Sequence record: SRR22947725_847
Direction: 5' to 3' (one strand)
DNA length: 34,283 bases
Shown: positions 16,497 to 30,971 of the stretch, in pieces
Position numbering within the stretch: the stretch's first letter is position 1
Layout: each line of letters starts with the position of its first letter
Notes under the pieces: generated by a model
What the model was told of the DNA's origin: nothing
Database searches by the model: none
The model's input: the letters and a program-made list of their open reading frames with translations, nothing else
Made by a program: the position numbers and the translations under genes

Positions 16497-17894
16497 ATGA
16501 AAATACAATTTCATTTCATCATAAAATTGAGCCTTCAGATCATCTTGGTTGCCTTGATGGGAGCCACTGCTCTGGCAGGAACCGGAAAACCCAACATCAT
16601 TTATATCATGACAGATGATCTAGGTTACGGTGACCTTGGGTGTTACGGACAACAGCGCATCAAGACGCCACAGATCGATCAATTGGCAGAGGAGGGGATG
16701 CGGTTTTCGCAATTCTATGCCGGCTCGACTGTCTGTGCTCCCTCAAGATGCGTTCTGATGACAGGATATCATACCGGGCATGCTCTGGTGAGAGGGAATC
16801 GTGAGGTCAAGCCGATGGGACAGTGGCCATTGCCTGATGATACCGTCACGGTGGCTGAAGTTTTGAAGAAGGCTGGATACACCACGGGACTCGTGGGAAA
16901 ATGGGGCCTCGGCGGCCCAGGTTCAACGGGGCATCCGAATCGTCAGGGTTTTGACTATTTTTTCGGCTACCTGTGCCAGCGACATGCGCACAATTATTAC
17001 CCAGAATTTCTTTTTCGAAATGAAACGCGCGTTCCTTTGAAAGGAAACAAGGTGGAAAATGATCGTTTGGATGGGGCAGGGTATGCGACCGATCGAACGA
17101 CCTTTTCGCATGATTTATGTGCCGATGAAGCCCTTGAATTTGTGAAACGCAACCATGAAAATCCGTTCTTTCTGTATCTGTCATTGACGATTCCTCATGC
17201 CAATAACGAAGGTGGCAAGCGTGGAATGGAAGTGCCGGATTACGGGATATATTCAGCTATGGATTGGCCTGAACCTCAAAAAGGGCACGCAGCTATGATC
17301 AGTCGCCTGGATGCCGATATTGGTAAACTCATGGCCTTGCTGAAGGATTTGAACATTGATGAACATACCATTGTGTTTTTTACCTCTGACAATGGACCGC
17401 ACCGAGAGGGTGGCAACGATCCTGATTTCAATGATTCCAACGGACCTTTGCGTGGTATCAAGCGTGATCTTTACGAAGGTGGTATTCGTGTGCCGATGAT
17501 TGTTCGATGGCCAGGCGAAATTGCACCTCAATCTGTCTCGGATCACATTGGCTATTTTGGTGACTTCATGACAACCGCTGCAGAGCTGGCAGGAACACGG
17601 GCACCCAAAGGACTGGATTCCATTAGTTTTGTGGACGCTTTGTTGGGTAATGATCGAAGCCAGAAACAGCATCCATATCTTTATTGGGAGTTTCATGGTG
17701 GAGGTCGACATTTTCAGGCTATCCGACTGGGGCCATGGAAAGGGGTGAAGCATCGAAATGGTTCCTTTGAGCTGTTCCGACTTGATCAGGACCTGGGCGA
17801 GTTGCACGATGTGGCTGGAAATCATCAGTCCTTGGTGACCCAGCTGAGTATTGAAATGGAACGATCCCATCAGGATAATCCCATGTGGCAATAA
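16497..17894 (+). CDS. Arylsulfatase (Cys type), secreted
   Basis: KPNIIYIMTDDLGYGD, CAPSRCVLMTG, GKWGLG, SDNG and KRDLYEGGIRVP. Confidence 0.94.
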   Translation: MKIQFHFIIKLSLQIILVALMGATALAGTGKPNIIYIMTDDLGYGDLGCYGQQRIKTPQIDQLAEEGMRFSQFYAGSTVCAPSRCVLMTGYHTGHALVRGNREVKPMGQWPLPDDTVTVAEVLKKAGYTTGLVGKWGLGGPGSTGHPNRQGFDYFFGYLCQRHAHNYYPEFLFRNETRVPLKGNKVENDRLDGAGYATDRTTFSHDLCADEALEFVKRNHENPFFLYLSLTIPHANNEGGKRGMEVPDYGIYSAMDWPEPQKGHAAMISRLDADIGKLMALLKDLNIDEHTIVFFTSDNGPHREGGNDPDFNDSNGPLRGIKRDLYEGGIRVPMIVRWPGEIAPQSVSDHIGYFGDFMTTAAELAGTRAPKGLDSISFVDALLGNDRSQKQHPYLYWEFHGGGRHFQAIRLGPWKGVKHRNGSFELFRLDQDLGELHDVAGNHQSLVTQLSIEMERSHQDNPMWQ

Positions 17895-17931
17895 AAGGGG
17901 ACTGATTTGGGTGTATGAAAAGCTGATAACA

Positions 17932-20844
17932 ATGAAACATTCCCTCAATCAATGGCTTAAGAATGTGACTTTGCACAGGTTGATGCCATCTTCCTGTCGC
18001 ATCCTTCCATTTGTTTTGCTTTTAGGAGTGACGGTTCATGCCGATGACTCGAAACTGTTTCTGGAGAAGGTCGCGCCCATGCTCGAGACGCATTGCTTGC
18101 GCTGTCATTACCCCGGTAACGAAGAAGGAGATGTTTCGCTTGCAACACCTGATGACTTGCGTGACGGAGGTTACCTTGATGTGCGGAACGGAGATCAATC
18201 CCATTTGTTGGACCTGGTCGAGCCCGTGAGTGCAGGGAAGAAACCGGAGATGCCCGAAGACGGCGATCCTTTGTCCTCTGAACAGGTAGAGGTTTTGCGG
18301 AAATGGGTGGTTCAGGGGGCTCTCTGGCCTGAAGGCAAGGTCCTCAAGGAAGCTTCTCAGGCAGATGCATCCTGGTGGGCCTTTCAAGCGCTGAGAGAAG
18401 TGAGCGTCCCTGATGTCACGAAAGCTCCAGTTTCATGGAAACTAAATCCAGTCGATGCGTTTATTTTCGAGGAACTTCAAAACCAGCATTTATCACCTTC
18501 AATGCCCACCAGTCGCAGGCAGTTGATCAGGAGGCTTTGTTTCGATATCACTGGTTTGCCCCCTTCAGTGGAGCAGGTCAAGCGATTTGTCGGTGATCCT
18601 TCACCTGATGCGTATGAGCATCTGGTGGATCGACTCCTGGCTTCGCCGCATTACGGGGAACGATGGGGGAGGCACTGGTTGGATGTCATACGTTTTGGTG
18701 AAAGTCGCGGGTTTGAGCGTAACGAAATCATTCGAAATGCCTGGCCTTTCCGTGACTACGTCATCCGTTCTTTTAACCAGGACAAGCCCTTGAACAGACT
18801 GATCAAGGAGCATCTTGCCGGTGACCAGCTCGGCCCCAATCAACCTGATGTCGAAATTGGAACCACTTTCCTTGTTTGTGGTCCATATGATGATGTGGGA
18901 AATCAGGATCCCGCTCAGGCTGCTCAGATCCGCGCTAACACCATTGATGAAATGATTCGTGCCAGCTCCGAAGCCTTTCTTGGCCTGACCGTAGGTTGCG
19001 CGCGTTGTCATCACCATAAATTCGATCCCATCTCTCAGGAAGACTATTACCGGTGGTATGCGACTTTTGCGGGAGTACGCCATGGTTCGCGTGAAATTGC
19101 CAGCAATGCAGAACGCGAGCAACGCAAGAGAATGATGGAGCCACTGGACGCTGAACGAAATGGTTTGGCAAAGGAGAAAGAGAGACTTGAAATTGTCATC
19201 CTGAAGCGTGCGGAAATGAAAAAAGATTTGTTTGCCGAATCCTGGACAAGAGACCCGATCAAGCGAACGGGAGTTGAAGAACGGTTTGAAAAGCGGTTTG
19301 CAAAATATGTTCGACTGATCGTGGAAGGCACCGAAAGCAATCCATACGCAAGTTCAGGTTATGGGATCGACGAATTCGAAGTATGGAGCTCAGGAAAAGC
19401 GGGGCAGAATGTTGCGTCACTCGCTTTGGGGGGATTCGCAAAGGGTGCAAGCCGTATTGCAGAAGATTTTGTGAAGGCATACAGTGCGCAGTTGACGATT
19501 GACGGTGAATACGGAGCCCGCTGGATTGCTCGGGGGTCTGAACTGAGCATCACACTTTCCAAACCAACTGAAATCGATCGTATTTATTTTTCCAGTGACA
19601 GAGGCGGCGATGCAGGCAATCAGTCGGTTGCCAATTTTGTCTCTGAGTATCGACTGGAAGTTTCGTCAGACGGTGAGCAATGGGAAAAGGTGGCGGACTC
19701 TCACGACCGTCAACCCGTCAATGATGCACATCGCAAGTGGCGTTGGATGATGATGGAGCAAACGAGTGAGGAACGGCAGCAATTGAAGGGGCTGGATCTT
19801 GCCATCGCACGACTGGATCGCGAGCGCAAGGATGTGCCTGAACTGCCCCGCTGGTGGGCCGGAAATTTCACTGGTATTGAAGAATCAACCTACGTATTCA
19901 TCGGAGGAAATCCTCAGCGTAAAGGTAAGGAAGTTGTGCCTGCGAGCCTCTCTGCTTTCGATGCAACCTCTGAAGGTTACCGCCTTGATCCGGGGGCTGC
20001 CGAAGGAAAAAGGCGGTTGGCGCTTGCCAATTGGCTCGTGTCCGGCGAGAACCCATTGACCCCGCGGGTGTGGGTGAATCGCATCTGGCAAAAACACTTT
20101 GGCCATGGCCTGGTCAGTACTCCAAGTGATTTTGGTGTCATGGGAAGTCAGCCAAGTCATGCGGATTTGCTGGATTGGTTGGCAGGTCAGCTTTTGGACA
20201 ATGGATGGCGCATGAAACCGCTCCACAAATTATTGGTGATGTCTCAAGCGTATCGACAGTCTTCCACTTTTCGATCCGATGCTGCTCGTGCAGATGCAGA
20301 TTCCAAATTTCTCTGGCGATTCCCACCTCGTCGGCTTTCTGCAGAGGAGATTCGTGATTCCATGCTGAAAGTATCGGGAGTGCTCAAGGTGGAAATGGGG
20401 GGGGCTGGTTTCAAGTTATACCGCTATCTTCAAGATAATGTCGCTACCTACCAGCCCTTGGATCATCATGGTTCTGAAACTTATCGGCGCGGTATTTATC
20501 ATCACAATGCACGCGCGGCCATTGTTGATCTGATGACGGAATTTGATTGTCCAGATCCAGCTTTTCCTGCGCCGAGACGAGCCTCTACCACCACACCGCT
20601 TCAGGCGCTAACCCTGTTGAATCACTCTTTTACACTCGACATGGCAAAAGCACTTTCAAATCAATTAGATCAAGATTCAGCAGGCGATGATGAGCGTTGG
20701 GTTACGCTTGCCTATTCGAGATCCTATGGGAGAAACCCTACAGAAAGTGAATTGCAAAAAGCACTGGCTTTCAAAGCAAACTTGGGAGGTGTCCTCTTTT
20801 GCCGGGCATTGTTTAATTCCAATGAATTTATCCACATTGATTGA
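17932..20844 (+). CDS. Planctomycete cytochrome c (PSCyt1) + DUF1549 (PSCyt2) + DUF1553 (PSD1) protein with an inserted discoidin-like domain
   Basis: CLRCH...MPED, WWAFQ, LIRRLCFDITGLPP, YGERWGRHWLDV, CARCHHHKFDP, NPLTPRVWVNRIWQKHFG, TPLQALTLLN and NSNEF. ATG 17932 avoids overlap with the sulfatase gene. Confidence 0.92.
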   Translation: MKHSLNQWLKNVTLHRLMPSSCRILPFVLLLGVTVHADDSKLFLEKVAPMLETHCLRCHYPGNEEGDVSLATPDDLRDGGYLDVRNGDQSHLLDLVEPVSAGKKPEMPEDGDPLSSEQVEVLRKWVVQGALWPEGKVLKEASQADASWWAFQALREVSVPDVTKAPVSWKLNPVDAFIFEELQNQHLSPSMPTSRRQLIRRLCFDITGLPPSVEQVKRFVGDPSPDAYEHLVDRLLASPHYGERWGRHWLDVIRFGESRGFERNEIIRNAWPFRDYVIRSFNQDKPLNRLIKEHLAGDQLGPNQPDVEIGTTFLVCGPYDDVGNQDPAQAAQIRANTIDEMIRASSEAFLGLTVGCARCHHHKFDPISQEDYYRWYATFAGVRHGSREIASNAEREQRKRMMEPLDAERNGLAKEKERLEIVILKRAEMKKDLFAESWTRDPIKRTGVEERFEKRFAKYVRLIVEGTESNPYASSGYGIDEFEVWSSGKAGQNVASLALGGFAKGASRIAEDFVKAYSAQLTIDGEYGARWIARGSELSITLSKPTEIDRIYFSSDRGGDAGNQSVANFVSEYRLEVSSDGEQWEKVADSHDRQPVNDAHRKWRWMMMEQTSEERQQLKGLDLAIARLDRERKDVPELPRWWAGNFTGIEESTYVFIGGNPQRKGKEVVPASLSAFDATSEGYRLDPGAAEGKRRLALANWLVSGENPLTPRVWVNRIWQKHFGHGLVSTPSDFGVMGSQPSHADLLDWLAGQLLDNGWRMKPLHKLLVMSQAYRQSSTFRSDAARADADSKFLWRFPPRRLSAEEIRDSMLKVSGVLKVEMGGAGFKLYRYLQDNVATYQPLDHHGSETYRRGIYHHNARAAIVDLMTEFDCPDPAFPAPRRASTTTPLQALTLLNHSFTLDMAKALSNQLDQDSAGDDERWVTLAYSRSYGRNPTESELQKALAFKANLGGVLFCRALFNSNEFIHID

Positions 20845-20859
20845 TCAGTCATTCAAAGC

Positions 20860-22317
20860 ATGATGAAAACTCCAACACAATCCGCATGGCAGGCTCTCCG
20901 AAATAGACGCGGATTTTTACATGATGTTTACACTGGCCTGGCAGGTGTGGGCTTGACAGCCCTGTTGAGACAGGAGGGTCTCGCCGATGGTCCACGTACT
21001 TGGGAACCTGGTTTGGGGCAGACGCATCATCTGTCAAAAGCTTCGAGAGTGCTTCAGATTTTTTGTCCCGGAGCGGCCTCTCATATGGATTTGTGGGAAC
21101 ATAAGCCCGGGCTGGATCAATGGCACGGGAAGCCACTTCCCGGAGAGGAGGCCTTCCTCTCATTCCAGGGTAAAAATGGCAATCTTATGCGCAGTCCATG
21201 GCCCTTTGTTGCGAGTGGTCAAAGTGGAAAAAAGATTTCCTCGATGTTACCTTACATGGCCAGACACGTGGATGATATTGCCTTTTTTCATGGTATGCAT
21301 TCCAAGACAAACACACATGGTCCGGGATGTGTTTTCATGAACACTGGCCATCCCACCGAAGGCTTCCCAAGCACGGGAGCTTGGATGAGTTATGCTTTGG
21401 GGTCGGCCAACGAAAATCTACCGACCTATGTGGCCATCCCTGACGTAAGAGGGGAGCCCCCCAATGGAAAAGCGAATTGGAGTAATGGGTTTTTACCCGC
21501 AAGGCATCAGGCCATCTTGATGAGTGCGCAACAGCCCATTCGAAACCTGTCACGCCCAGGGGTGGTTTCTGCTTCAGAAGAACAGAGAACAAGATCATTG
21601 ATTGAGTTTTTGAACCAGCAACACGCTGAAGATCGATCCGGTGATTCCGCTCTGCAGGCGAGAATGGCTGCCTATGAATTAGCAGCACGGATGCAGCTTT
21701 CTGCTCCAGAGGTTTCGGATTTAAGTAGAGAACCAGACTCAGTGAGAAAGCTTTATGGAGTTGGGGACAGTAATACCCTCAAGGATGGTTATGCACAAAA
21801 TTGCATTCTGGCTCGGCGCTTATTGGAGCGTGGCGTACGCTATGTAAATCTTTATTGTGCATCAAGAGCCAGCGGAGTAGACGGACTGTTGAATTGGGAT
21901 GCGCACAAGACCTTGAAATCTGATTACGAGCGGCATTGTCCAATCTTTGATCAGCCAACGGCTGCTTTGCTGACGGATCTCAAACAACGTGGCATGCTGG
22001 ACGATACTTTGGTCTTATGGACGACCGAATTTGGGCGCATGCCAACACATCAGCAAGGAACTTCTGGCCGTGATCATAATCCCGACGGCTTTACATGTTG
22101 GATGGCAGGTGCGGGTGTCAAGGGCGGCATGAGTTATGGCGCGACAGATGAATTTGGTCGAAGAGCGGCTATAAATCCAACCACCGTCTGGGATTTTTAC
22201 GGAACGGTTCTTCATCTTCTTGGCTTTGATCATGAACGCCTGAGTTATTATTACAATGGATTCGATCGTCGATTAACAGACGTGCATGGTGGGGTCGTTC
22301 GTGATGTCCTGGCTTGA
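20860..22317 (+). CDS. DUF1501 family protein with Tat-like signal
   Basis: NRRGFLH, GAASHMDLWEHKP, CILARRLLERGVRYV, WDAH, EFGRMP, GRDHNP and RLTDVHG. It is the usual partner of DUF1549/1553 genes. Confidence 0.92.
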   Translation: MMKTPTQSAWQALRNRRGFLHDVYTGLAGVGLTALLRQEGLADGPRTWEPGLGQTHHLSKASRVLQIFCPGAASHMDLWEHKPGLDQWHGKPLPGEEAFLSFQGKNGNLMRSPWPFVASGQSGKKISSMLPYMARHVDDIAFFHGMHSKTNTHGPGCVFMNTGHPTEGFPSTGAWMSYALGSANENLPTYVAIPDVRGEPPNGKANWSNGFLPARHQAILMSAQQPIRNLSRPGVVSASEEQRTRSLIEFLNQQHAEDRSGDSALQARMAAYELAARMQLSAPEVSDLSREPDSVRKLYGVGDSNTLKDGYAQNCILARRLLERGVRYVNLYCASRASGVDGLLNWDAHKTLKSDYERHCPIFDQPTAALLTDLKQRGMLDDTLVLWTTEFGRMPTHQQGTSGRDHNPDGFTCWMAGAGVKGGMSYGATDEFGRRAAINPTTVWDFYGTVLHLLGFDHERLSYYYNGFDRRLTDVHGGVVRDVLA

Positions 22318-22734: not shown

Positions 22735-22932
22735 CGGTTTTACTTGGGATAAGTGTATGTTGTAGCTCAAATAATTGTATCCTGGTTTAATGGTTTTCTT
22801 CGGTATTTCCTCTCGGTGAGCTTTTTACAATGCGATGATTGAGCAGTTTGATCTGCCTGAATCATTTCACGATTACTCATAATGTGATAAAAAAGATGGA
22901 AATAATTGAGCCGTGGATGTAAATTTCGTCTA

Positions 22933-23403
22933 GTGAATACACGTTATCCAAGCAAAGCCTTGATCCGACGTCTGACGGCGTCGGTCGTATGTCTTTGTTG
23001 GTTGGCGAGTTTTGTCTATTGCCAAACCTTGTGTCTGATGGGGGCAGACATGAACCACTTTAGGGATGGTTCATCCACCGAAACGTCTACCACTTGTCAT
23101 GGGGCAACAAAAACATCCTTACCTCCTTGCCATTCCAATTCGGAATCATCAGATTCAGAAGGAGGAAGCCTTTGTTGCTGTTCTGTGGATTTGATCAGTC
23201 AAAACGCACATCAAGCTGATTGGATTCAGGCTCATGATTTGTTGATTCCTCAATGTTGCCTTTTGCTGAGTATTCAGCCCGTTTCGTCCATCGAGACAAT
23301 GCTCGATTACTTGTCTTCTCAATCATGGCGTGACTGGACGCTCACACCTGAACTGTGTCTTGGGCCGGCTATTCACAGCCAGGCTCCTCCTTCTTTTTCC
23401 TAA
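22933..23403 (+). CDS. Cys/His-rich exported leader protein ending in QAPP; putative regulatory uORF or arrest peptide (DUF2946/CruR/CutF/CzcI-like layout)
   Basis: Basic then hydrophobic N-terminus (RRLTASVVCLCWLASFVYC). 12 Cys and 6 His from GTG 22933, including CH, CH, CCC and CC. C-terminus PELCLGPAIHSQAPPSFS*. Lies directly upstream of the efflux operon. Alternative start TTG 22906. Confidence 0.75.
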   Translation: MNTRYPSKALIRRLTASVVCLCWLASFVYCQTLCLMGADMNHFRDGSSTETSTTCHGATKTSLPPCHSNSESSDSEGGSLCCCSVDLISQNAHQADWIQAHDLLIPQCCLLLSIQPVSSIETMLDYLSSQSWRDWTLTPELCLGPAIHSQAPPSFS

Positions 23404-23540
23404 TCTTCCACTTCTTGTTGTGACCACCTGTTTTCCTGTGGTCTTGGATTTTAATTAATCTGCCAGAGACTGACGTTTCGTCGGTCTGGCAAGTCATTCG
23501 AGCCTTCATAGAATCGTTCGATTGATGATGAGGTTTCCCG
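23404..23540 (+). promoter_or_regulatory. Structured leader between the uORF and cusC
   Basis: Hairpins GACCAC/GTGGTC (23422-23443) and TGCCA-ga-GACTGACG-ttt-CGTCGGTC-TGGCA (23461-23491). GCCTTCAT (23502-23509) can pair with ATGAGGT (23528-23534), which contains the SD-like GAGGT. Confidence 0.5.
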
Positions 23541-24932
23541 ATGAATATACAAAATTTACTTAATCCAATTTGGAGCCTAGTTCCAAGTGTCCTGATGTTG
23601 GGCTGTGCCACGTCTGTTTCCAATTCCTATGATCATAGAAATGGGATGACCGATAAAATGCCTCAATTGAACCCAACAGCATCCATTTCCGATCAAAGAA
23701 TCGAAATGGAACTACAGTATTCCTTAGAAGGTTATTTGGAATATGCAGCATTACAAAATGCTGGATTGCGTTCTAAGTTTTTACAATGGAAGGCGGCTCT
23801 TGAACGAATTCCACAGGTTTATTCACTACCCGATCCTAAATTCAACTATGGTTATTACATCAGCGAAGTGGAGACACGTGTGGGCCCGCAAAATCACCGT
23901 GTTGGGATTGCTCAAACCTTTCCTTGGTTCGGTAAGTTAGGTTTGAGAAATGATAAAGCCTCAGAGGAAGCCAAAATTGCAAAAGAACGTTTTGATGCCG
24001 AAAAGGTGCGGCTTTTTTACCAAGTGAAAGCTGCTTATTACGAATACTATTACTTGGGCAAGGCAATTGACATTACACACCAAAACATTGAATTGCTGAA
24101 AAATCTCGAAGGCGTGGCTCAGGCGAAAGTGCGCGCAGGAAGCGGGATAGGTGGCGTTATGCAGGCCCAGATTGAAATTGGCAAATTGGAAGACCGATTG
24201 AAGGCGTTGAATGAAATGCGCCTTCCTGTTTTGGGGAAACTAAATGTCGCCGTTGGTTTAAAAATCGAGAGCCATTTACCCATACCAAAAGCCATTACAT
24301 ACTCGCCGGTTTCGATTGATTGGGATCTGTTGCCTTCATTCATCAATCAATCCAATCACAAGGTGAAACGGCTGACGCATCAGGTGACAACAAGATCCAT
24401 TGATGTCGCACTAGCCAAAAAACAATTCTATCCCGATGTGCAGCTGGGCGTGGATTACATTGCTACTGGGGAATCTGTTAATCCTGGTGTGTCGGACAGT
24501 GGAAAGGATCCTGTGATGGCAATGTTTTCAGTGAATATTCCTTTGTGGTACGGAAAAAAGCGTGCCGCTCTTGCCGAAGCGGAATACCAGTATCATGCAT
24601 CCATAGCCGACCTTGAGAATTCAAGGAATCAACTCAATGCTGATCTGAAAATGGCGTTATTTGAATTTAAAGATGCTGAACGAAAATTCATATTATATCA
24701 AACGACACTCACAACCCTGGCCAGGAATTCACTGAATGTTGCGCGTGAATCTTATGAAGGGGGGCGTGTAGAATTTTCTGAACTTATCGATGCTCAACGC
24801 CTGTTGCTCGAATTTCAACTATCCATTGAACGAGCGCGTACGGATCACGAAATCAGTCTTGCGAAAATTGAACGAATCCTTGGTAGAAAATTACCCCAGT
24901 CTCAGGAAATGGAGGGAAGTCCTAAATTATGA
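23541..24932 (+). CDS. cusC: TolC-family outer membrane factor of a heavy-metal RND system (CusC/SilC role), lipoprotein
   Basis: Lipobox VLMLGC. OMF repeats (SLPDP, QTFPWFGKL, FYPDVQLG, NIPLWYGK, ELIDAQR). First gene of an OMF-MFP-RND operon. Confidence 0.88.
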   Translation: MNIQNLLNPIWSLVPSVLMLGCATSVSNSYDHRNGMTDKMPQLNPTASISDQRIEMELQYSLEGYLEYAALQNAGLRSKFLQWKAALERIPQVYSLPDPKFNYGYYISEVETRVGPQNHRVGIAQTFPWFGKLGLRNDKASEEAKIAKERFDAEKVRLFYQVKAAYYEYYYLGKAIDITHQNIELLKNLEGVAQAKVRAGSGIGGVMQAQIEIGKLEDRLKALNEMRLPVLGKLNVAVGLKIESHLPIPKAITYSPVSIDWDLLPSFINQSNHKVKRLTHQVTTRSIDVALAKKQFYPDVQLGVDYIATGESVNPGVSDSGKDPVMAMFSVNIPLWYGKKRAALAEAEYQYHASIADLENSRNQLNADLKMALFEFKDAERKFILYQTTLTTLARNSLNVARESYEGGRVEFSELIDAQRLLLEFQLSIERARTDHEISLAKIERILGRKLPQSQEMEGSPKL

Positions 24933-26938
24933 AAAAGATTTTATTATTCAATATCCCCATTGTTATTTTGGCTTTTGTCGCCGGAATGCTTTTTAAAGGC
25001 AGCTCCAAACCAATTCGCACGGATGGTTTAACAGAGCATGCAAGTCACAGTAATGTTGCTTTTTATACATGTTCGATGCACCCGTCTGTTAAATTACAGG
25101 ATCCAAATGCCAAGTGCCCCATCTGTGCCATGGATCTTATTCCTGTCACATCCGGGACCGATGATTTGGCGGGATTTCCTTCGTTATCGCTTTCTCCAAG
25201 AGCCATAAAATTGGCTGAAATCGAGACAACCGCTGTCGAACGTAAGTTTGTTGAAACGGAGATTAGGATGGTGGGTAAAGTGGAATATGATGAAACACGA
25301 CTGTCCTACATCACCGCTTGGGTGCCTGGACGTCTTGATCGGCTTTATGTCGATTACACTGGAGTAGCGGTCAACAGGGGAGATCACCTTGTAGATTTAT
25401 ATAGTCCTGATTTATTGTCGGCACAGGAAGAATTGCTACAGGCTATCCAAACATCTGAATCTTTGAAGGCTAGTGAAAGCAATTTTCTGAAAAGTAAATC
25501 CTTGGCCAATATTGAATCTACCAAGGAGAAACTGCGATTATGGGGTTTATCTGAAGATCAGATTTCAGCCATCGAAGAGAGTGGAACTTCCTCGGATCAT
25601 ATCACCATCAATTCACCGATTAGTGGCATAGTCGTTCACAAGGATGCCTTGGAGGGGATGTATGTTAAAACCGGTAATCGGGTTTACACCATTGCAGATT
25701 TATCCAAAGTATGGGTCAAGCTCGACGCATATGAATCTGATCTTCCGTGGTTGCATTATGGACAAGCCGTCGAGTTTCGAACCGAAGCTTATCCTGGTCA
25801 GGTGTTCAAAGGTCAAATTGCGTTCATTGATCCCATTCTCAATTCCAGCACTCGCACGGTGAAGATTAGGGTCAACCTTCCTAATCCCGACGGTAAACTC
25901 AAGCCAGACATGTTTGTTCGTGCCACTGTTAAGTCGCGAGTTGCAAAAGGAGGGCGTGTCATGAATCCTGATTTAATGGGGAAATGGATTAGCCCCATGC
26001 ATCCTGAAATTGTTAAAAATGAGCCTGGTAGCTGTGATATATGTGGCATGGATTTAGTGAGCGCCGAATCGATGGGATATGTTTCTGCTGATCATTTGGA
26101 GGAAGAAGCTCCTTTGGTGATTCCTGCATCGGCACCCTTAATCACTGGAAAACGTGCGGTGGTTTATCTCTCAACCAAACCCGGCCATTTTGAGGGGAGG
26201 GTAGTGGAGCTTGGGCCCAGGGCAGGTGATTATTATATTGTGTTCGATGGTTTGGAGGAAGGTGAGCAAATTGTTAGCAGAGGTAGTTTCAAGATCGACA
26301 GCGCAGTTCAAATCCAAGCCAAACCCAGTATGATGAATCCAGAAGGGGGAGAAGGCTCCATGCCTCATCATGATCATTCCAGTCATGCTCAAGGGATATC
26401 GGACGATAACCAACTAGAATCAAACCCTCCAGTCGTTTCTATATTCGATGTTCCTGATGCTTGGACTCAATCATTGAAACTAATGTTGAACGACTATCTT
26501 GAACTTCAATCTTCCTTAAGCCGCGACAGCATAGAAAAAAGTCAAGAACACATAACCTCATTGAAACATCAACTTATTACAACGGAGGAAGGCGTGCTTG
26601 ACGAAGAAGGTGAGTCTTTTTGGGATGGTCATGTCAATTTGATGAATGCTGCATTGGTGCGTATGGATAAGGCGCCTGATATTCAAAACGCGCGTGAGGT
26701 TTTTTTGGAATTGTCCAACGCGCTGGTCCCAATGCTGAAACAATTTGGAAGTGGCCTGAAACAAGAGATACTCATTTACCACTGTCCTATGGCATTCAGG
26801 GGAAAGGGTGGCGATTGGATTCAAAACAAGTCAGGGATTGAGAATCCTTACTTTGGCAGCTCAATGTTTACCTGTGGTGAGCTAAAGGAGCGCCTGACTC
26901 TGACATCAGAAAAGGGGGGCGATCTTCTCCATGAGTAA
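24929..26938 (+). CDS. cusB: CusB-type periplasmic adaptor with two heavy-metal-binding domains and a C-terminal DUF3347-like domain
   Basis: YTCSMHP...CPICAMDL, GRLDRLYV, YSPDLLSAQEE, TRTVKIR and LKPDMF. Second domain WISPMHP...CDICGMDL, a His-rich linker, and YHCPMA...W...NPYFGSSMFTCG. ATGA overlap with cusC. Confidence 0.9.
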   Translation: MKKILLFNIPIVILAFVAGMLFKGSSKPIRTDGLTEHASHSNVAFYTCSMHPSVKLQDPNAKCPICAMDLIPVTSGTDDLAGFPSLSLSPRAIKLAEIETTAVERKFVETEIRMVGKVEYDETRLSYITAWVPGRLDRLYVDYTGVAVNRGDHLVDLYSPDLLSAQEELLQAIQTSESLKASESNFLKSKSLANIESTKEKLRLWGLSEDQISAIEESGTSSDHITINSPISGIVVHKDALEGMYVKTGNRVYTIADLSKVWVKLDAYESDLPWLHYGQAVEFRTEAYPGQVFKGQIAFIDPILNSSTRTVKIRVNLPNPDGKLKPDMFVRATVKSRVAKGGRVMNPDLMGKWISPMHPEIVKNEPGSCDICGMDLVSAESMGYVSADHLEEEAPLVIPASAPLITGKRAVVYLSTKPGHFEGRVVELGPRAGDYYIVFDGLEEGEQIVSRGSFKIDSAVQIQAKPSMMNPEGGEGSMPHHDHSSHAQGISDDNQLESNPPVVSIFDVPDAWTQSLKLMLNDYLELQSSLSRDSIEKSQEHITSLKHQLITTEEGVLDEEGESFWDGHVNLMNAALVRMDKAPDIQNAREVFLELSNALVPMLKQFGSGLKQEILIYHCPMAFRGKGGDWIQNKSGIENPYFGSSMFTCGELKERLTLTSEKGGDLLHE

Positions 26939-29900
26939 ATCGACTCAAGAAAACCTAGGGCCTTTGGGAATGCTCATCGAATTTTGTTTACGCAATAAAT
27001 TGGTGGTCATTCTTGGTGTTTTCTTTTGTATCACATGGGGATTGTTGGTTGCACCTTTCGATTGGGAATTAGGTGATCTGCCAAGAGATCCTTTACCGGT
27101 GGATGCGATTCCGGACATTGGAGAAAATCAGCAAATTGTATTTACTGAATGGATGGGGCGATCTCCTCAGGATGTTGAAGAACAGATTACCTATCCTTTG
27201 ACGGTTTCACTTCTGGGCGTGCCTGGGGTGAATACGGTTCGAAGCTACTCCATGTTTGGCTTCTCCACAATTTACATCATTTTCAAAGATAACATCGATT
27301 TCTATTGGTCTCGATCAAGAGTGCTGGAGAAATTAAACAGCCTTCCTTCTGGGGGTCTACCCTCCGGTGTTCAACCTACTTTGGGGCCAGATGCAACGGC
27401 ATTAGGACAGGTCTTTTGGTACACTTTGGAAGGCCTGGATGAGTCAGGGAATCCAACTGGAGGTTGGGATTTAGATGAATTGCGCTCGGTTCAAGATTGG
27501 CAGATTCGTTATGCGTTGCTTTCGGCTGAAGGTGTCAGTGAGGTAGCTTCCGTCGGAGGGTATGTAAGAGAGTATCAAATTGATGTGGATCCAGATGCCA
27601 TGCGCGCATTCGACGTTAGTTTGGAAGATGTTTTCATGGCAGTCAAGATGGCCAACGTAGATGTGGGGGCCAGAACGATTGAAGTCAATCAGGTGGAATA
27701 TGTCATTCGCGGTGTTGGGTTCATTAAATCGTTGAAAGATATTGAGAACAGCGTGATCAAGGTAAATGACAATGTGCCCGTTTATGTGAAAAATGTGGCA
27801 AACGTGGTCCATGGTCCCGCCCTCCGTCGGGGAGCACTTGATAAGGAAGGTGCCGAAGCTGTCGGCGGGGTAGTTGTCGTTCGATACGGGGAGAATCCGC
27901 TTCAGGTTATTCAGAATATAAAATCCAAAATTGCGGAACTAACACCGGGGCTTCCCCAAAAAACCTTGGCTGATGGGACTGTGAGTCGGCTGGCCATTGT
28001 GCCCTTTTACGATCGTACGGGTTTAATCAATGAAACGTTGGAAACACTCAACGACGCCCTCTCCGAAGAGATCCTGGTCACCATCATCGTGGTGCTTGTC
28101 ATGGTCATGCATTTCCGTAGTTCCATGCTCATTGCTGGTTTGCTTCCATTATCGGTGCTCATTTGTTTCAGTGCCATGAAAGTAGTGGGTGTGGACGCCA
28201 ATATTGTGGCATTATCAGGCATCGCGATTGCCATCGGAACCATGGTCGATATGGGGATTGTGATTTCTGAAAACATTCTCAAACATCTGGACGACGCCCA
28301 GCCCTGTGAGGATACATTACAGGTCGTTTTGAGAGCTTCCAAAGAAGTTGGAAGTGCCGTGCTGACTGCCGTAGCGACGACCGTGATCAGCTTTCTACCG
28401 GTGTTTACCATGGAGGCTGCTGAAGGAAAGCTATTCACGCCACTTGCCTGGACCAAAACTTTTGCATTGATGGCTTCTGTGTTGGTTGCCATCTGCGTGA
28501 TCCCACCGTTTGCTCACACTTTATTTGCCGGCAAAATCAAAGGTAAAACCTTAAAGAAAATCGTGTTCGGATTAGTCTTCATCACTGGTGCAGGTTTAGG
28601 TGTAACATGGGTGATCGGATACTTAAAGGGAACCTCTCCTCACATGCTCTGGGGACTGCTTGGCATCGTTTTATTAACCACCAGTGGTTATCGCATGATG
28701 GAGCATCGTTTGCCTGAATCATTCACAAAGCACATGCCTCGTGTATTCAATTATTTGGCAGTCATGATGGTTGGCTATTTTCTCGCAAAGCATTGGTTAC
28801 CATTGGGCCTGGAGCAGGGGGTTTTGCTTAATTGCATCTTTGTGGGTACGATGATCGGGGGGATATTATCCATTGTTCATTTGTTTCTCAAATATTACGG
28901 TTCAATGTTGGAATGGTGTTTGGGACATCGCCTGATCTTTATGTTATTGCCCTTGGTTCTTGTCATGCTGGGAGGGATGTCCTGGTTAGGATTCAATGGT
29001 TTATTTGGTTGGTTGCCCAACGGAGTGCGAAGCATTACCCCCTTGGCTCACGCGCAGCACTTGTTTCCTGGGTTAGGTAAGGAATTCATGCCTTCGCTGG
29101 ACGAGGGCTCTTACCTATATATGCCATCAACCATGCCTCATGCGTCGATTGGTGAATCCATGGACGCCATGCGTAAGCAGGACATGGCGATTCGTCAAAT
29201 CCCCGAAATAGAAAGTGTGGTGGGTAAACTGGGGCGAGCGGAAACTCCGCTTGATCCCGCACCTATTTCCATGGTGGAAACCATCGTTAATTTCTTGCCT
29301 GAATACATCACGGATGAACAGGGACATCCCCTATCATTCAGATACGATTCACAACAAAACGATTACTTCCGCGATCGTCAGGGGCATGCTGTCAATGCGC
29401 CCGATGGTCAGCCTTATTACGTGTCGGGAAAATTTGAAAGAGATGGGGCAGGAGAATTGATTGACGATAAACACGGCAGGCCTTTTCGCCTATGGAGAGC
29501 AGCATTAAATCCTGAGATGAATGAAGGTCGTGATTTTTGGAACGGTATTGAGAATTCGGAAGATATTTGGAATGCCATTGTTCAAGCAGCCAAGATTCCG
29601 GGGTCTACTTCTGCACCTAAACTGCAGCCCATTGCTGCGAGAATTGTGATGCTTCAGAGTGGCATGCGTGCTCCGATGGGGATCAAGGTCAAGGGACCCG
29701 ATTTGGAAACGATCGAACGGGTTGGGTTGGGATTAGAGCAGCTGCTCAAAGAGGTTCCATCGATTGAACCTTCCACTGTTTTTTCTGATCGTATTGTTGG
29801 GAAACCCTATTTGGAAATTGTGATCGATCGTGAGGCTATTGCAAGATACGGCATTCAATTGGCTCGGGTGCAAGAGGTGATTGAAGTGGGTATCGGCGGG

Positions 29901-30971
29901 AAACGCATCACGACAACCGTGGAAGGTCGTGAGAGGTATCCAGTGCGCGTGCGATATCTTCGTGAGCTGCGTGATCAGATTGAATCACTTGGCCGCATCC
30001 TGGTTCCCGCTCCGAATGGAAATCAAATACCATTGGGGCAATTAGCAAATATCGAGTATTTGCGTGGTCCTCAAAGTATCAAGAGTGAGGATACATTCTT
30101 AATTGGGTATGTCCTCTTTGATAAGAAACCCGGGTACGCCGAAGTGGAAGTGGTGGAGGTTGCCGATGCCTTTCTGCAAAGCAAGATCACTGACGGTACT
30201 CTGGAAATTCCGGATGGTGTCAGTTTTACTTTTGCAGGAAGTTATGAAAATCAGGTGCGATCCGAAAAGCGCTTGATGGTTGTCCTTCCTCTGGCCTTGT
30301 TAGCCATCTTTCTGATTCTTTACCTTCAATTTCGTTCTACTGCGAATGCAATGCTCGTTTTCTCCGGAATCATTGTGGCGTGGGCCGGCGGCTTCTTGAT
30401 GCTGTGGTTTTATGGTCAGGATTGGTTTCTTAATTTCTCGTTGTTTGGTTTTAATTTTCGAGAGCTGTTTCAAGTTCGCCCCTTCAATTTAAGTGTCGCC
30501 GTATGGGTAGGTTTTCTTGCCTTGTTCGGGATCGCATCCGATAACGGTGTTATCATGGCCACTTACCTGGATCAAAAGTTTCGAGGGTTAAAGGATATGT
30601 CCATTACAGATATACGCCTCGCCACTATCGAGGCAGGTGTCAGACGAGCACGTCCTTGTATGATGACAACCGCCACCACCGTATTGGCGTTGATCCCTAT
30701 CCTGACCTCAACCGGGCGCGGATCAGATATCATGGTGCCCATGGCGATACCTTCCTTTGGTGGCATGCTGGTGGTGGTTATCAGTATTTTTGTCGTACCC
30801 GTTCTTTACTGCTCAATGAAGGAATTTACACACCGAACAAAGATGCATGCAGATACCGGAGCCTTCTTGTCTGCCGCCACCTTGTTCATTCTGCCATTGT
30901 TGTACTGTGGTTTGTTGGAATGGAAGAATCAGGGATTGAGTCAAGACAGTAAGAGAGATCAAAGGGAGTGA
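26931..30971 (+). CDS. cusA: CusA/SilA-type Cu(I)/Ag(I) efflux RND permease (1346 aa, expanded)
   Basis: DAIPDIGENQ, GRSPQDVEEQITYPL, LGPDAT and TM4 AIAIGTMVD. All three CusA metal-site Met are present (LYMP M731, PISMVE M781, RIVMLQ M907). Also RERYPVRVRY. Confidence 0.93.
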   Translation: MSKSTQENLGPLGMLIEFCLRNKLVVILGVFFCITWGLLVAPFDWELGDLPRDPLPVDAIPDIGENQQIVFTEWMGRSPQDVEEQITYPLTVSLLGVPGVNTVRSYSMFGFSTIYIIFKDNIDFYWSRSRVLEKLNSLPSGGLPSGVQPTLGPDATALGQVFWYTLEGLDESGNPTGGWDLDELRSVQDWQIRYALLSAEGVSEVASVGGYVREYQIDVDPDAMRAFDVSLEDVFMAVKMANVDVGARTIEVNQVEYVIRGVGFIKSLKDIENSVIKVNDNVPVYVKNVANVVHGPALRRGALDKEGAEAVGGVVVVRYGENPLQVIQNIKSKIAELTPGLPQKTLADGTVSRLAIVPFYDRTGLINETLETLNDALSEEILVTIIVVLVMVMHFRSSMLIAGLLPLSVLICFSAMKVVGVDANIVALSGIAIAIGTMVDMGIVISENILKHLDDAQPCEDTLQVVLRASKEVGSAVLTAVATTVISFLPVFTMEAAEGKLFTPLAWTKTFALMASVLVAICVIPPFAHTLFAGKIKGKTLKKIVFGLVFITGAGLGVTWVIGYLKGTSPHMLWGLLGIVLLTTSGYRMMEHRLPESFTKHMPRVFNYLAVMMVGYFLAKHWLPLGLEQGVLLNCIFVGTMIGGILSIVHLFLKYYGSMLEWCLGHRLIFMLLPLVLVMLGGMSWLGFNGLFGWLPNGVRSITPLAHAQHLFPGLGKEFMPSLDEGSYLYMPSTMPHASIGESMDAMRKQDMAIRQIPEIESVVGKLGRAETPLDPAPISMVETIVNFLPEYITDEQGHPLSFRYDSQQNDYFRDRQGHAVNAPDGQPYYVSGKFERDGAGELIDDKHGRPFRLWRAALNPEMNEGRDFWNGIENSEDIWNAIVQAAKIPGSTSAPKLQPIAARIVMLQSGMRAPMGIKVKGPDLETIERVGLGLEQLLKEVPSIEPSTVFSDRIVGKPYLEIVIDREAIARYGIQLARVQEVIEVGIGGKRITTTVEGRERYPVRVRYLRELRDQIESLGRILVPAPNGNQIPLGQLANIEYLRGPQSIKSEDTFLIGYVLFDKKPGYAEVEVVEVADAFLQSKITDGTLEIPDGVSFTFAGSYENQVRSEKRLMVVLPLALLAIFLILYLQFRSTANAMLVFSGIIVAWAGGFLMLWFYGQDWFLNFSLFGFNFRELFQVRPFNLSVAVWVGFLALFGIASDNGVIMATYLDQKFRGLKDMSITDIRLATIEAGVRRARPCMMTTATTVLALIPILTSTGRGSDIMVPMAIPSFGGMLVVVISIFVVPVLYCSMKEFTHRTKMHADTGAFLSAATLFILPLLYCGLLEWKNQGLSQDSKRDQRE

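Follow-up and report, generated by a model that had tools for sequence, protein, structure and literature searches.

A probable CutF-like metal-responsive leader from a new Verrucomicrobiota family precedes a putative Cus-type efflux operon

We analysed a stretch of 34,283 nucleotides (nt) from sequence record SRR22947725_847 (the window), in which an open reading frame (ORF) of 156 residues, here called the leader, lies upstream of the genes cusCBA for a copper/silver-type efflux pump. Judged from its sequence and those of its relatives, the leader very probably responds to metal in the manner of CutF and represents a new family specific to Verrucomicrobiota. With moderate confidence we further read it as a cis-acting, co-translational copper sensor that would pause ribosomes at a C-terminal Ala-Pro-Pro (APP) motif. 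Purifying selection on the ORF together with the family-wide APP tail marks the leader as more than a chance feature. Its parts are as follows.

22933..23403, + strand: leader ORF, 156 residues plus stop, GTG start (open frame, starts of homologues, pN/pS)
22951..23049, + strand: predicted N-terminal hydrophobic helix, residues 7-39, after Lys8, Arg12 and Arg13 (AlphaFold2)
23020..23034, + strand: C30-x3-C34 at the end of the hydrophobic segment (family alignment)
23125..23133, + strand: PCH, residues 65-67, invariant in 10/10 members of the window's subfamily
23173..23181, + strand: CCC, residues 81-83, with C82 invariant family-wide and 71 residues before Pro153
23335..23391, + strand: conserved C-terminal segment W135-P153, ending in QAPP; candidate tunnel-interacting pause peptide (counts over 153 proteins)
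23383..23391, + strand: Ala-Pro-Pro codons GCT CCT CCT; putative pause with Pro152 and Pro153 in the P and A sites, respectively (sequence; CruR analogy)
23392..23403, + strand: variable three-codon tail Ser-Phe-Ser and TAA (tail length counts)

The frame is open from the GTG at 22933 to the TAA at 23401-23403, and the 156-residue ORF with a signal-like or transmembrane N-terminus that an initial annotation had read from the letters alone was recovered. We took this GTG as the start because three homologues (P0002-P0004, 63-76% identity) are also 156 residues long and begin at the same residue, and because a metagenome relative (L080) has ATG at this position; an alternative in-frame TTG at 22906 would give 165 residues. 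AlphaFold2, run with a 100-row family alignment, modelled residues 7-39 as one helix, with a predicted local distance difference test score (pLDDT) of 92-94 over residues 11-30, and R13, A16, W23 and L24 are conserved in the family alignment (A2). The modelled helix fits a signal peptide or a signal anchor. It is the only confident part of the model, whose mean pLDDT is 64 and which holds no compact domain, low pLDDT being no proof of disorder. Of the cysteine motifs listed initially, TCH (residues 54-56), PCH, CCC and CC (residues 108-109) are all present, and CxxC is absent on inspection of the leader sequence, but the CxxxC at C30-C34 had been overlooked. QAPP is encoded by CAG GCT CCT CCT (23380-23391), three codons before the stop, and a spacer of 137 nt (23404-23540) separates the leader stop from the ATG of an outer-membrane efflux protein (OEP) gene at 23541; both coordinates agree with the first description. 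Against ten relatives at 90-95% identity, the ratio of non-synonymous to synonymous differences (pN/pS) was 0.16-0.44, and residues 131-156 differed from the same ten by 0-3 synonymous and 0-1 non-synonymous changes.

The leader belongs to a sizeable, previously unnamed Verrucomicrobiota family. It had no match in Pfam or NCBIfam at E<=1, NCBIfam held no model for eight typical family members, and no relative of the family among solved structures was found at E<=1. A word-indexed search with the leader returned four close clusters, and a single-sequence search of 41 related genomes gave matches at E<=0.1 in 12; full-length single-sequence matches in L006, L007 and L009, which come from other families of the same order, kept the motif at 26-29% identity. 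A profile of eight sequences searched against 1.84 billion representatives collected 328 proteins at a threshold of E<=1e-3 (214 at E<=1e-10), almost all 130-200 residues long and aligned end to end. Genome records with members are almost all from Verrucomicrobiota (Limisphaerales, Pedosphaera, Opitutaceae, Lacunisphaera). Within the order of the nearest genome, 23 of 201 sampled genomes have a member and some have two, while a phylum-wide sample gave 2/401 genomes at E<=1e-5, with nine candidates scored per genome and mostly small genomes, a figure that should not be taken as absence. In the Atlas, the closest clusters consist of unnamed verrucomicrobial proteins, and one DUF6769 cluster (0.95) is a lead only. 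Full-text searches on arrest peptides and copper-linked stalling in Verrucomicrobiota and on CutF-like proteins brought up no description of the family; the main text of the CutF-like survey (PMC9973294) does not contain the word Verrucomicrobiota, the phylum of this family's hosts, and its supplementary clusters might include the family.

The most conserved part of the family is formed by the last ~19 residues before a short variable tail, and the middle of the protein diverges, as had been anticipated. We counted residues over 153 proteins, namely P0002-P0004 and the best 150 of the profile search. All 153 have a last Pro-Pro, a near-invariance of the motif that is partly circular, as the collecting profile itself contains it. 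Positions before the last Pro were occupied as follows.

-2: Ala in 150/153
-4: Ser in 136/153
-5: Arg in 122 and His in 23 of 153 (together 145)
-7: Ala in 145/153
-8: Pro in 142/153
-9: Gly in 148/153
-10: Leu in 145/153
-12: Val in 136/153
-13: Glu in 134/153
-14: Pro in 145/153
-15: Thr in 134/153
-18: Trp in 109/153

The resulting consensus is W-x-F-T-P-E-V-x-L-G-P-A-x-[RH]-S-[LHQ]-A-P-P, usually followed by three residues and the stop: exactly three residues follow the Pro-Pro in 97/153 proteins (range 0-7), and they are unconserved in sequence. The expectations on which the initial annotation had staked its proposal, that APP would be kept in homologues (Pro-Pro in 153/153, Ala in 150/153) near the stop, are thus borne out. 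Gln, which it had noted in place of the usual Arg before APP, is the minority residue there: 94 proteins have Leu, 50 have His, 6 have Gln and 1 has Arg. The search of the order supplied 13 further loci, of which ten carry xAPP; one with RAPP, one with PPP and one lacking Pro-Pro matched at the N-terminus only. The A-P-P is encoded by 17 codon combinations among 49 loci, and because these codons vary synonymously, the constraint on the tail acts on the peptide. As a separate observation, the Ala codon before the Pro-Pro is GCT in 35/49 loci and the second Pro codon is CCC in 30/49, a bias that could reflect the relatedness of the loci, tRNA or an E-site preference; a preference for E-site codons that begin with G has been described (bioRxiv 10.1101/2024.04.15.589488).

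Only four columns are invariant in the 100-row alignment, C30, C82, P152 and P153. C82 lies 69-73 residues before the last Pro in all 100 members (71 in 66 and 70 in 22), whereas the interval from C30 varies between 106 and 146. CxxxC is found at C30 in 63/100, the stretch from C30 to C82 has a median of 6 His and 4 Cys, and the median length of the family is 152 residues.

These features also suit a conventional exported or membrane-anchored Cys/His metal-binding protein acting in trans as a chaperone, a buffer or a CzcI-like regulator, with a C-terminus that serves as a partner-binding or processing motif. The Cys/His clusters, the export helix, the purifying selection along the whole ORF and the metal-gene neighbours would all be expected of such a protein, and CzcI-type proteins lacking a proline motif are described upstream of czcCBA (PMC9973294). 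However, conservation peaks at positions -18 to 0 and is followed by a variable three-residue tail, unlike extreme C-terminal motifs; sorting signals have a transmembrane segment after their motif, unlike the leader tail; no compact fold was predicted; and in most relatives a conserved RNA hairpin, described below, abuts the Pro-Pro site. Furthermore, the partner genes vary widely (pump, oxidase, ATPase, kinase), and therefore a regulatory cassette fits better than a protein with a dedicated partner. We regard action in trans as possible but doubtful.

The neighbours of the relatives are consistent with a leader of copper operons. We examined 31 loci fetched with the pattern VCLGPAFRS (18-row alignment), so that only members having this 9-mer are represented; four of them end before any downstream ORF. 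In 19 of the remaining 27, a metal-related Pfam family occurs within the first three ORFs on the same strand, upholding the proposal that the ORF precedes copper-homeostasis genes, here of varied kinds. These comprise six OEP-HlyD(-ACR_tran) pumps, eight multicopper oxidases (an OEP gene accompanies three, and CopB one of these three), one P-type ATPase with an HMBD domain, one HMBD protein, two Metal_resist proteins and one OEP with NicO. The other eight loci have a PAS kinase with a LuxR regulator, a ferredoxin with a multihaem cytochrome, a ferric reductase, a DUF2231 protein with Crp, a PDZ protease or no match. Spacers between leader and next gene range from 15 to about 580 nt. CutF-like and DUF2946 genes likewise have varied targets behind one conserved small gene.

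In eight loci the leader is separated from the OEP or multicopper-oxidase gene by an ORF of about 190-225 residues with no curated Pfam or NCBIfam family (L024:1688-2308, L032:529-1149, L039:6549-7148, L040:6547-7146, L046:689-1294, L029:6510-7184, L022:2716-3366 and L041:1193-1768). Such operons may thus have another conserved component beside the leader.

Among characterised systems the closest is CutF of Rhodobacter capsulatus, which has CxxxC, a C-terminal PPP and a required signal peptide; periplasmic copper binding is proposed to cause a stall that melts a stem-loop over the cutO ribosome-binding site, and the stall is opposed by EF-P (bioRxiv 10.1101/2025.02.05.636593). Among the 5,334 CutF-like proteins surveyed by Ozturk et al. 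in 2023, most of which come from Pseudomonadota and Bacteroidota, the OEP of RND pumps was the commonest neighbour, multicopper oxidases being the neighbours in the founding case (PMC9973294). The leader shares with CutF the small exported protein, the CxxxC, other cysteines and histidines, and a Pro-Pro within the last 15 residues; it also shares with CutF-like genes a position on the same strand just upstream of copper genes, OEP and multicopper-oxidase neighbours both occurring in the family. By the rules of that survey (PMC9973294), its Pro-Pro at 152-153 of 156, its hydrophobic helix at 7-39 and its OEP gene 137 nt downstream agree with a CutF-like protein, but the length there is limited to <150 residues and the leader has 156, the family median being 152. 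In contrast to the PPP of CutF, the family has [LHQ]APP after an 18-residue near-invariant segment and a Cys-to-Pro-Pro distance of 69-73, and in most members its RNA forms two conserved hairpins from the stop on instead of the one stem-loop over the ribosome-binding site. Since OEP genes of RND pumps top the list of CutF-like neighbours (PMC9973294), a leader before a cus-type pump, a trait by which the initial annotation had set the ORF apart, is not new; the concept of a cis-acting copper leader, also in front of such a pump, is already published. CopL of Xanthomonas/Stenotrophomonas and CzcI of Cupriavidus are, by description, similar small Cys/His-rich ORFs before a copper oxidase or czcCBA, CopL acting in cis, although CzcI is described as having no C-terminal proline motif (PMC9973294).

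CruR (Bp2923) of Bordetella pertussis, a DUF2946 protein, has a CXXC with RAPP 45 residues later, three residues before its end, and acts via Rho (PMC9426467); in the PURE system it arrests the ribosome while the codons of its two prolines occupy the P site and the A site (PMC12992588). Like CruR, the leader combines an export signal, a Cys at a fixed distance before Pro-Pro, a metal operon and a long spacer with a Pro-Pro three residues before the end. It differs in having CxxxC and CCC in place of CXXC, a spacing of 71 against 45 and an exporter as target where CruR has a TonB-dependent importer, and the Arg of RAPP is replaced in the family. As first annotated, the ORF is distinct from DUF2946: PF11162 (gathering score 23.7 bits) had no match to the window's leader at E<=1 and matched 2/100 family members, the best at E 0.012, and hhalign of the family with verrucomicrobial DUF2946-like leaders, a narrow set of 13 sequences, gave a probability of 0.85%. 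As a positive control, the verrucomicrobial RGPP/RAPP leaders of L047 and L048 scored 23.1 and 20.4 bits, just below the cut-off. Such DUF2946-like leaders, with CXXC or a single Cys and RGPP or RAPP near the end, were seen in the same order in L047 (1318-1773), in L048 (370-744) and in L073, where the frame stops about 1340 nt before the end of the locus; the one in L047 immediately precedes a TonB-dependent-receptor-like ORF, which recalls the arrangement of CruR. Leaders of both types therefore occur side by side in Verrucomicrobiota.

The family also resembles the RAPP-type arrest peptides (SecM with RAGP, ApdA and ApdP with RAPP, ApcA with RAPG), which are small secreted or membrane proteins encoded upstream of the regulated gene, with a conserved C-terminal segment of ~17-20 residues ending in A-P-P or G-P a few codons before the stop. 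Nevertheless, the downstream genes serve protein localisation there and metal handling here, and the Arg is found in 1/153 family proteins, which instead have Arg or His two residues further upstream. The initial annotation had treated this Arg as merely usual, whereas it was irreplaceable in every RAPP-type peptide assayed (PMC12992588); because it is absent here, the mechanism cannot be transferred from SecM, ApdA or CruR. APP fits the XPPX motif of EF-P-dependent pausing, with a small or acidic X in a host that has EF-P, and genes for EF-P (above cut-off) and Rho were each found in 3/3 genomes of the genus. Peil et al. reportedly identified APP in 2013 as a strong diprolyl pause motif. Any pause would more probably be of an EF-P-sensitive diprolyl type strengthened by the tunnel segment, closer to CutF than to SecM or CruR.

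A strict CruR-type switch would have the leader arrest constitutively and metal relieve the arrest, after which Rho would terminate in the C-rich spacer, so that the genes are off with metal or the pump is induced by scarcity or another signal. A C/U-rich, G-poor stretch at 23383-23421 does resemble a Rho loading region, Rho is present in the genus, and the Pro-Pro lies three residues before the stop as in CruR (PMC9426467). Yet the Arg for EF-P-refractory RAPP arrest is absent (PMC12992588), the Cys-to-Pro-Pro spacing is 71 and not 45 (PMC9426467), and an exporter switched off by metal makes no physiological sense. We therefore consider such a switch improbable.

In the mechanism that we favour, a CutF-like co-translational sensor, the nascent leader would be threaded through SecYEG until the ribosome pauses, its P site holding Pro152, its A site Pro153 and its exit tunnel the conserved segment; this site assignment is borrowed from the CruR toeprint (PMC12992588). 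During the pause Cys82 of the CCC cluster and Cys30/Cys34 would be outside the ribosome, on or beyond the membrane, and the duration of the pause would be set by Cu(I) or Ag(I) bound to these thiols and not by a disulfide or by pulling of the chain onward. Pause length would then be passed on to cusCBA expression via the leader RNA. From the analogy with CutF and the exporter as target, metal should lengthen the pause and switch the pump on, a direction that we infer. Most relatives carry a conserved hairpin that begins about 10 nt downstream of the codons for Pro-Pro, where a paused ribosome would have its front edge. Least certain in this scheme is the RNA read-out, which in the window's clade may operate by Rho access or attenuation and not by direct unmasking of the ribosome-binding site. 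Only tentatively can the family be proposed as a new class of pause peptide that dispenses with the RAPP Arg, in which an 18-residue tunnel segment plus [LHQ]APP, an mRNA hairpin in most members and Cu(I) tuning through a Cys ~71 residues from the peptidyl-transferase centre would, together with the two-hairpin RNA, make a transferable copper switch.

The RNA element of the relatives begins at the leader stop. Of 51 distinct family loci, 36 have their strongest hairpin (within 75 nt) beginning between -8 and +3 of the stop end (35 of them with a free energy, dG, <= -12 kcal/mol), compared with 2/42 stops of Pfam-supported genes in the same loci, none of these with dG <= -12. The element consists of P1, whose outer stem is conserved and whose inner stem is rich in G+C, then a C/U-rich linker and P2 (a conserved 7-bp stem). 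It spans about 98 nt and occurs in most family loci outside the window's clade (among L006-L076, for example L036:6436-6532, L040:6436-6533 and L016:6451-6548), and P2 is followed by a further conserved short word, TCTGTC-like. RNAalifold found no pairs on a MAFFT alignment of 35 loci and only five P2 pairs on 24 picked loci; because it recovered so little, the P1/P2 structure was given by hand. In a test biased towards that structure by the picking of 24 well-aligned loci and by the hand-made pairing, 89.2% of cells pair as against 31-52% in slid controls, and double changes occur at six pairs in 17 cells, a number reached by 0/500 shuffles. A covariance model located the element directly after the leader stop in further loci outside the building set and gave no credible match elsewhere in 415 kb. 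Rfam 15 did not match the element. A search of eight loci at E<=1 yielded three chance matches elsewhere, and at gathering thresholds the window had none. No complementarity of the P1 3' arm with the P2 5' arm, as in a classical attenuator, was seen by eye.

The first paired base of P1 lies at a median of 10 nt after the second Pro codon, which is about +16 from the first base of the P-site Pro codon. In toeprints the front edge of the ribosome is found at about +16 from the P-site codon. In three loci with five-residue tails the hairpin shifts into the ORF and a distance of 11-12 nt is kept; over all, the P1 position is spread alike around the Pro-Pro site and the stop codon (standard deviation 2.3 vs 2.4). 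That the RNA is the regulatory element, with translation of the ORF merely positioning ribosomes or coupling transcription and the peptide conserved through overlapping RNA constraint, is very improbable: a two-hairpin RNA right after the stop in most relatives and the biased Ala codon (GCT in 35/49) could be cited for it, but A-P-P is written in 17 codon combinations, synonymous changes outnumber non-synonymous ones, and the window's clade has kept the peptide motif and lost the recognisable RNA element.

The spacer of the window itself holds the following features.

23404..23421, + strand: C/U-rich, G-poor linker of 18 nt after the stop, kept in L005 and L088 (49-51% identical)
23422..23443, + strand: hairpin 1, 6-bp stem and 10-nt loop, -10.3 kcal/mol, z -2.15
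23461..23491, + strand: hairpin 2, 13 bp, -16.8 kcal/mol, one compensatory G-C to A-U change, seen in L002, L080 and L082

Hairpin 1 has one compensatory A-U to G-C change in L080 and is followed by a U-rich tail (23444-23459), which together look weakly terminator-like; L005 and L088 have a hairpin and a U-rich tail at the same place. The stretch occurs in marine metatranscriptome libraries of several studies, and contigs from RNA libraries span the leader, the spacer and the start of cusC (X3, 22959-23727; X1, 23358-23659). They are compatible with co-transcription of leader and cusC but define no single transcript, level or ends; DNA may be present in such libraries, and bins without coverage are uninformative. 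One X2 contig stops at 23445, just past hairpin 1, a single contig end that is no evidence of an RNA 3' end. Contigs of X5 and X3 begin just inside the leader, at 22945 and 22959, the X3 end carrying adapter letters, and an in-frame TTG lies at 22960. We did not adopt these contig starts as a transcription start, since X1 and X2 contigs cover 22879-23014.

Several points weigh against a cis-acting pause, in addition to the partial circularity of the motif counts. Arrest in the family is our inference. The Arg position of RAPP is Gln in the leader and Leu or His in the family, whereas all Arg substitutions abolished arrest in ApcA, ApdA and ApdP, SecM with AAPP or AAGP (Arg-to-Ala) was arrest-defective and CruR R139A lost arrest (PMC12992588). 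The PPP of CutF alone was no strong staller in a LepB fusion (PMC9973294). The fixed Cys-to-Pro-Pro spacing could instead mean a small folded domain. The family loci are related to one another, so that the counts overstate their independence. In the window's clade, moreover, the covariance model found no P1-P2 match at E<=1 in the window or in L001-L005, and hairpin 1 begins 30 nt past the A-site codon, where neither a paused nor a terminating ribosome would touch it. We rejected, as the main read-out, a masked ribosome-binding site of cusC: the minimum-free-energy fold does pair a Shine-Dalgarno-like GAGG, but it is weak and not significant (z -1.84), and close relatives have GAGA there.

Downstream of the leader the pump operon is organised as follows.

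23541..24932, + strand: outer-membrane efflux protein, CusC-like lipoprotein (PF02321, E 1.2e-44)
24929..26938, + strand: CusB-like adaptor with two HMBD domains and a C-terminal DUF3347 (domain matches)
26931..30971, + strand: CusA/CzcA-family heavy-metal RND pump, 1346 residues (TIGR00914, 756.6 bits)

The best solved relative of the pump is E. coli CusA with 628 bits, compared with 390 for the Zn-type ZneA; because the pump is closer to CusA than to ZneA, a Cu/Ag-type, Cus-type HME-RND label for the operon is reasonable. The pump has 1346 residues, as against about 1050 for CusA, and its matches are split (query 15-540 and about 940-1300), which implies a predicted mid-protein insertion of roughly 300-400 residues. 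The initial statement that the window has no cusRS or cusF gene agrees with our Pfam scan, in which none of 21 window ORFs (those of at least 150 residues, and the operon) had response-regulator, histidine-kinase or CusF domains, and the HMBD and DUF3347 domains of the adaptor might take over the role of CusF. Directly upstream of the leader, positions 17851-22317 encode a PSCyt1/PSCyt2/PSD1 protein of 997 residues that includes an F5/8 type C domain, and next to it a DUF1501 protein of 485 residues, a gene pair typical of Planctomycetes and Verrucomicrobia, and the remainder of the window has sulfatases, GSDH-like and sugar-metabolism genes.

To date, copper-responsive control through a nascent exported peptide is understood in detail for two proteobacterial systems, CruR and CutF, and these differ in nearly all mechanistic detail. 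The family described here would be a third design, unrelated in sequence, with an 18-residue tail, a 71-residue Cys ruler and, in most members, an RNA hairpin at the putative pause site. It would thus test which features of such switches are essential, namely whether the RAPP Arg is dispensable and whether mRNA structure can hold the ribosome. For genome annotation, a hypothetical gene that recurs and an RNA motif absent from Rfam can now be named. If the proposed mechanism is true, it would explain how copper pumps are regulated in many Verrucomicrobiota, abundant marine ones included, with no neighbouring two-component system, and the leader could be a copper switch plugged in before pumps, oxidases, ATPases and kinases.

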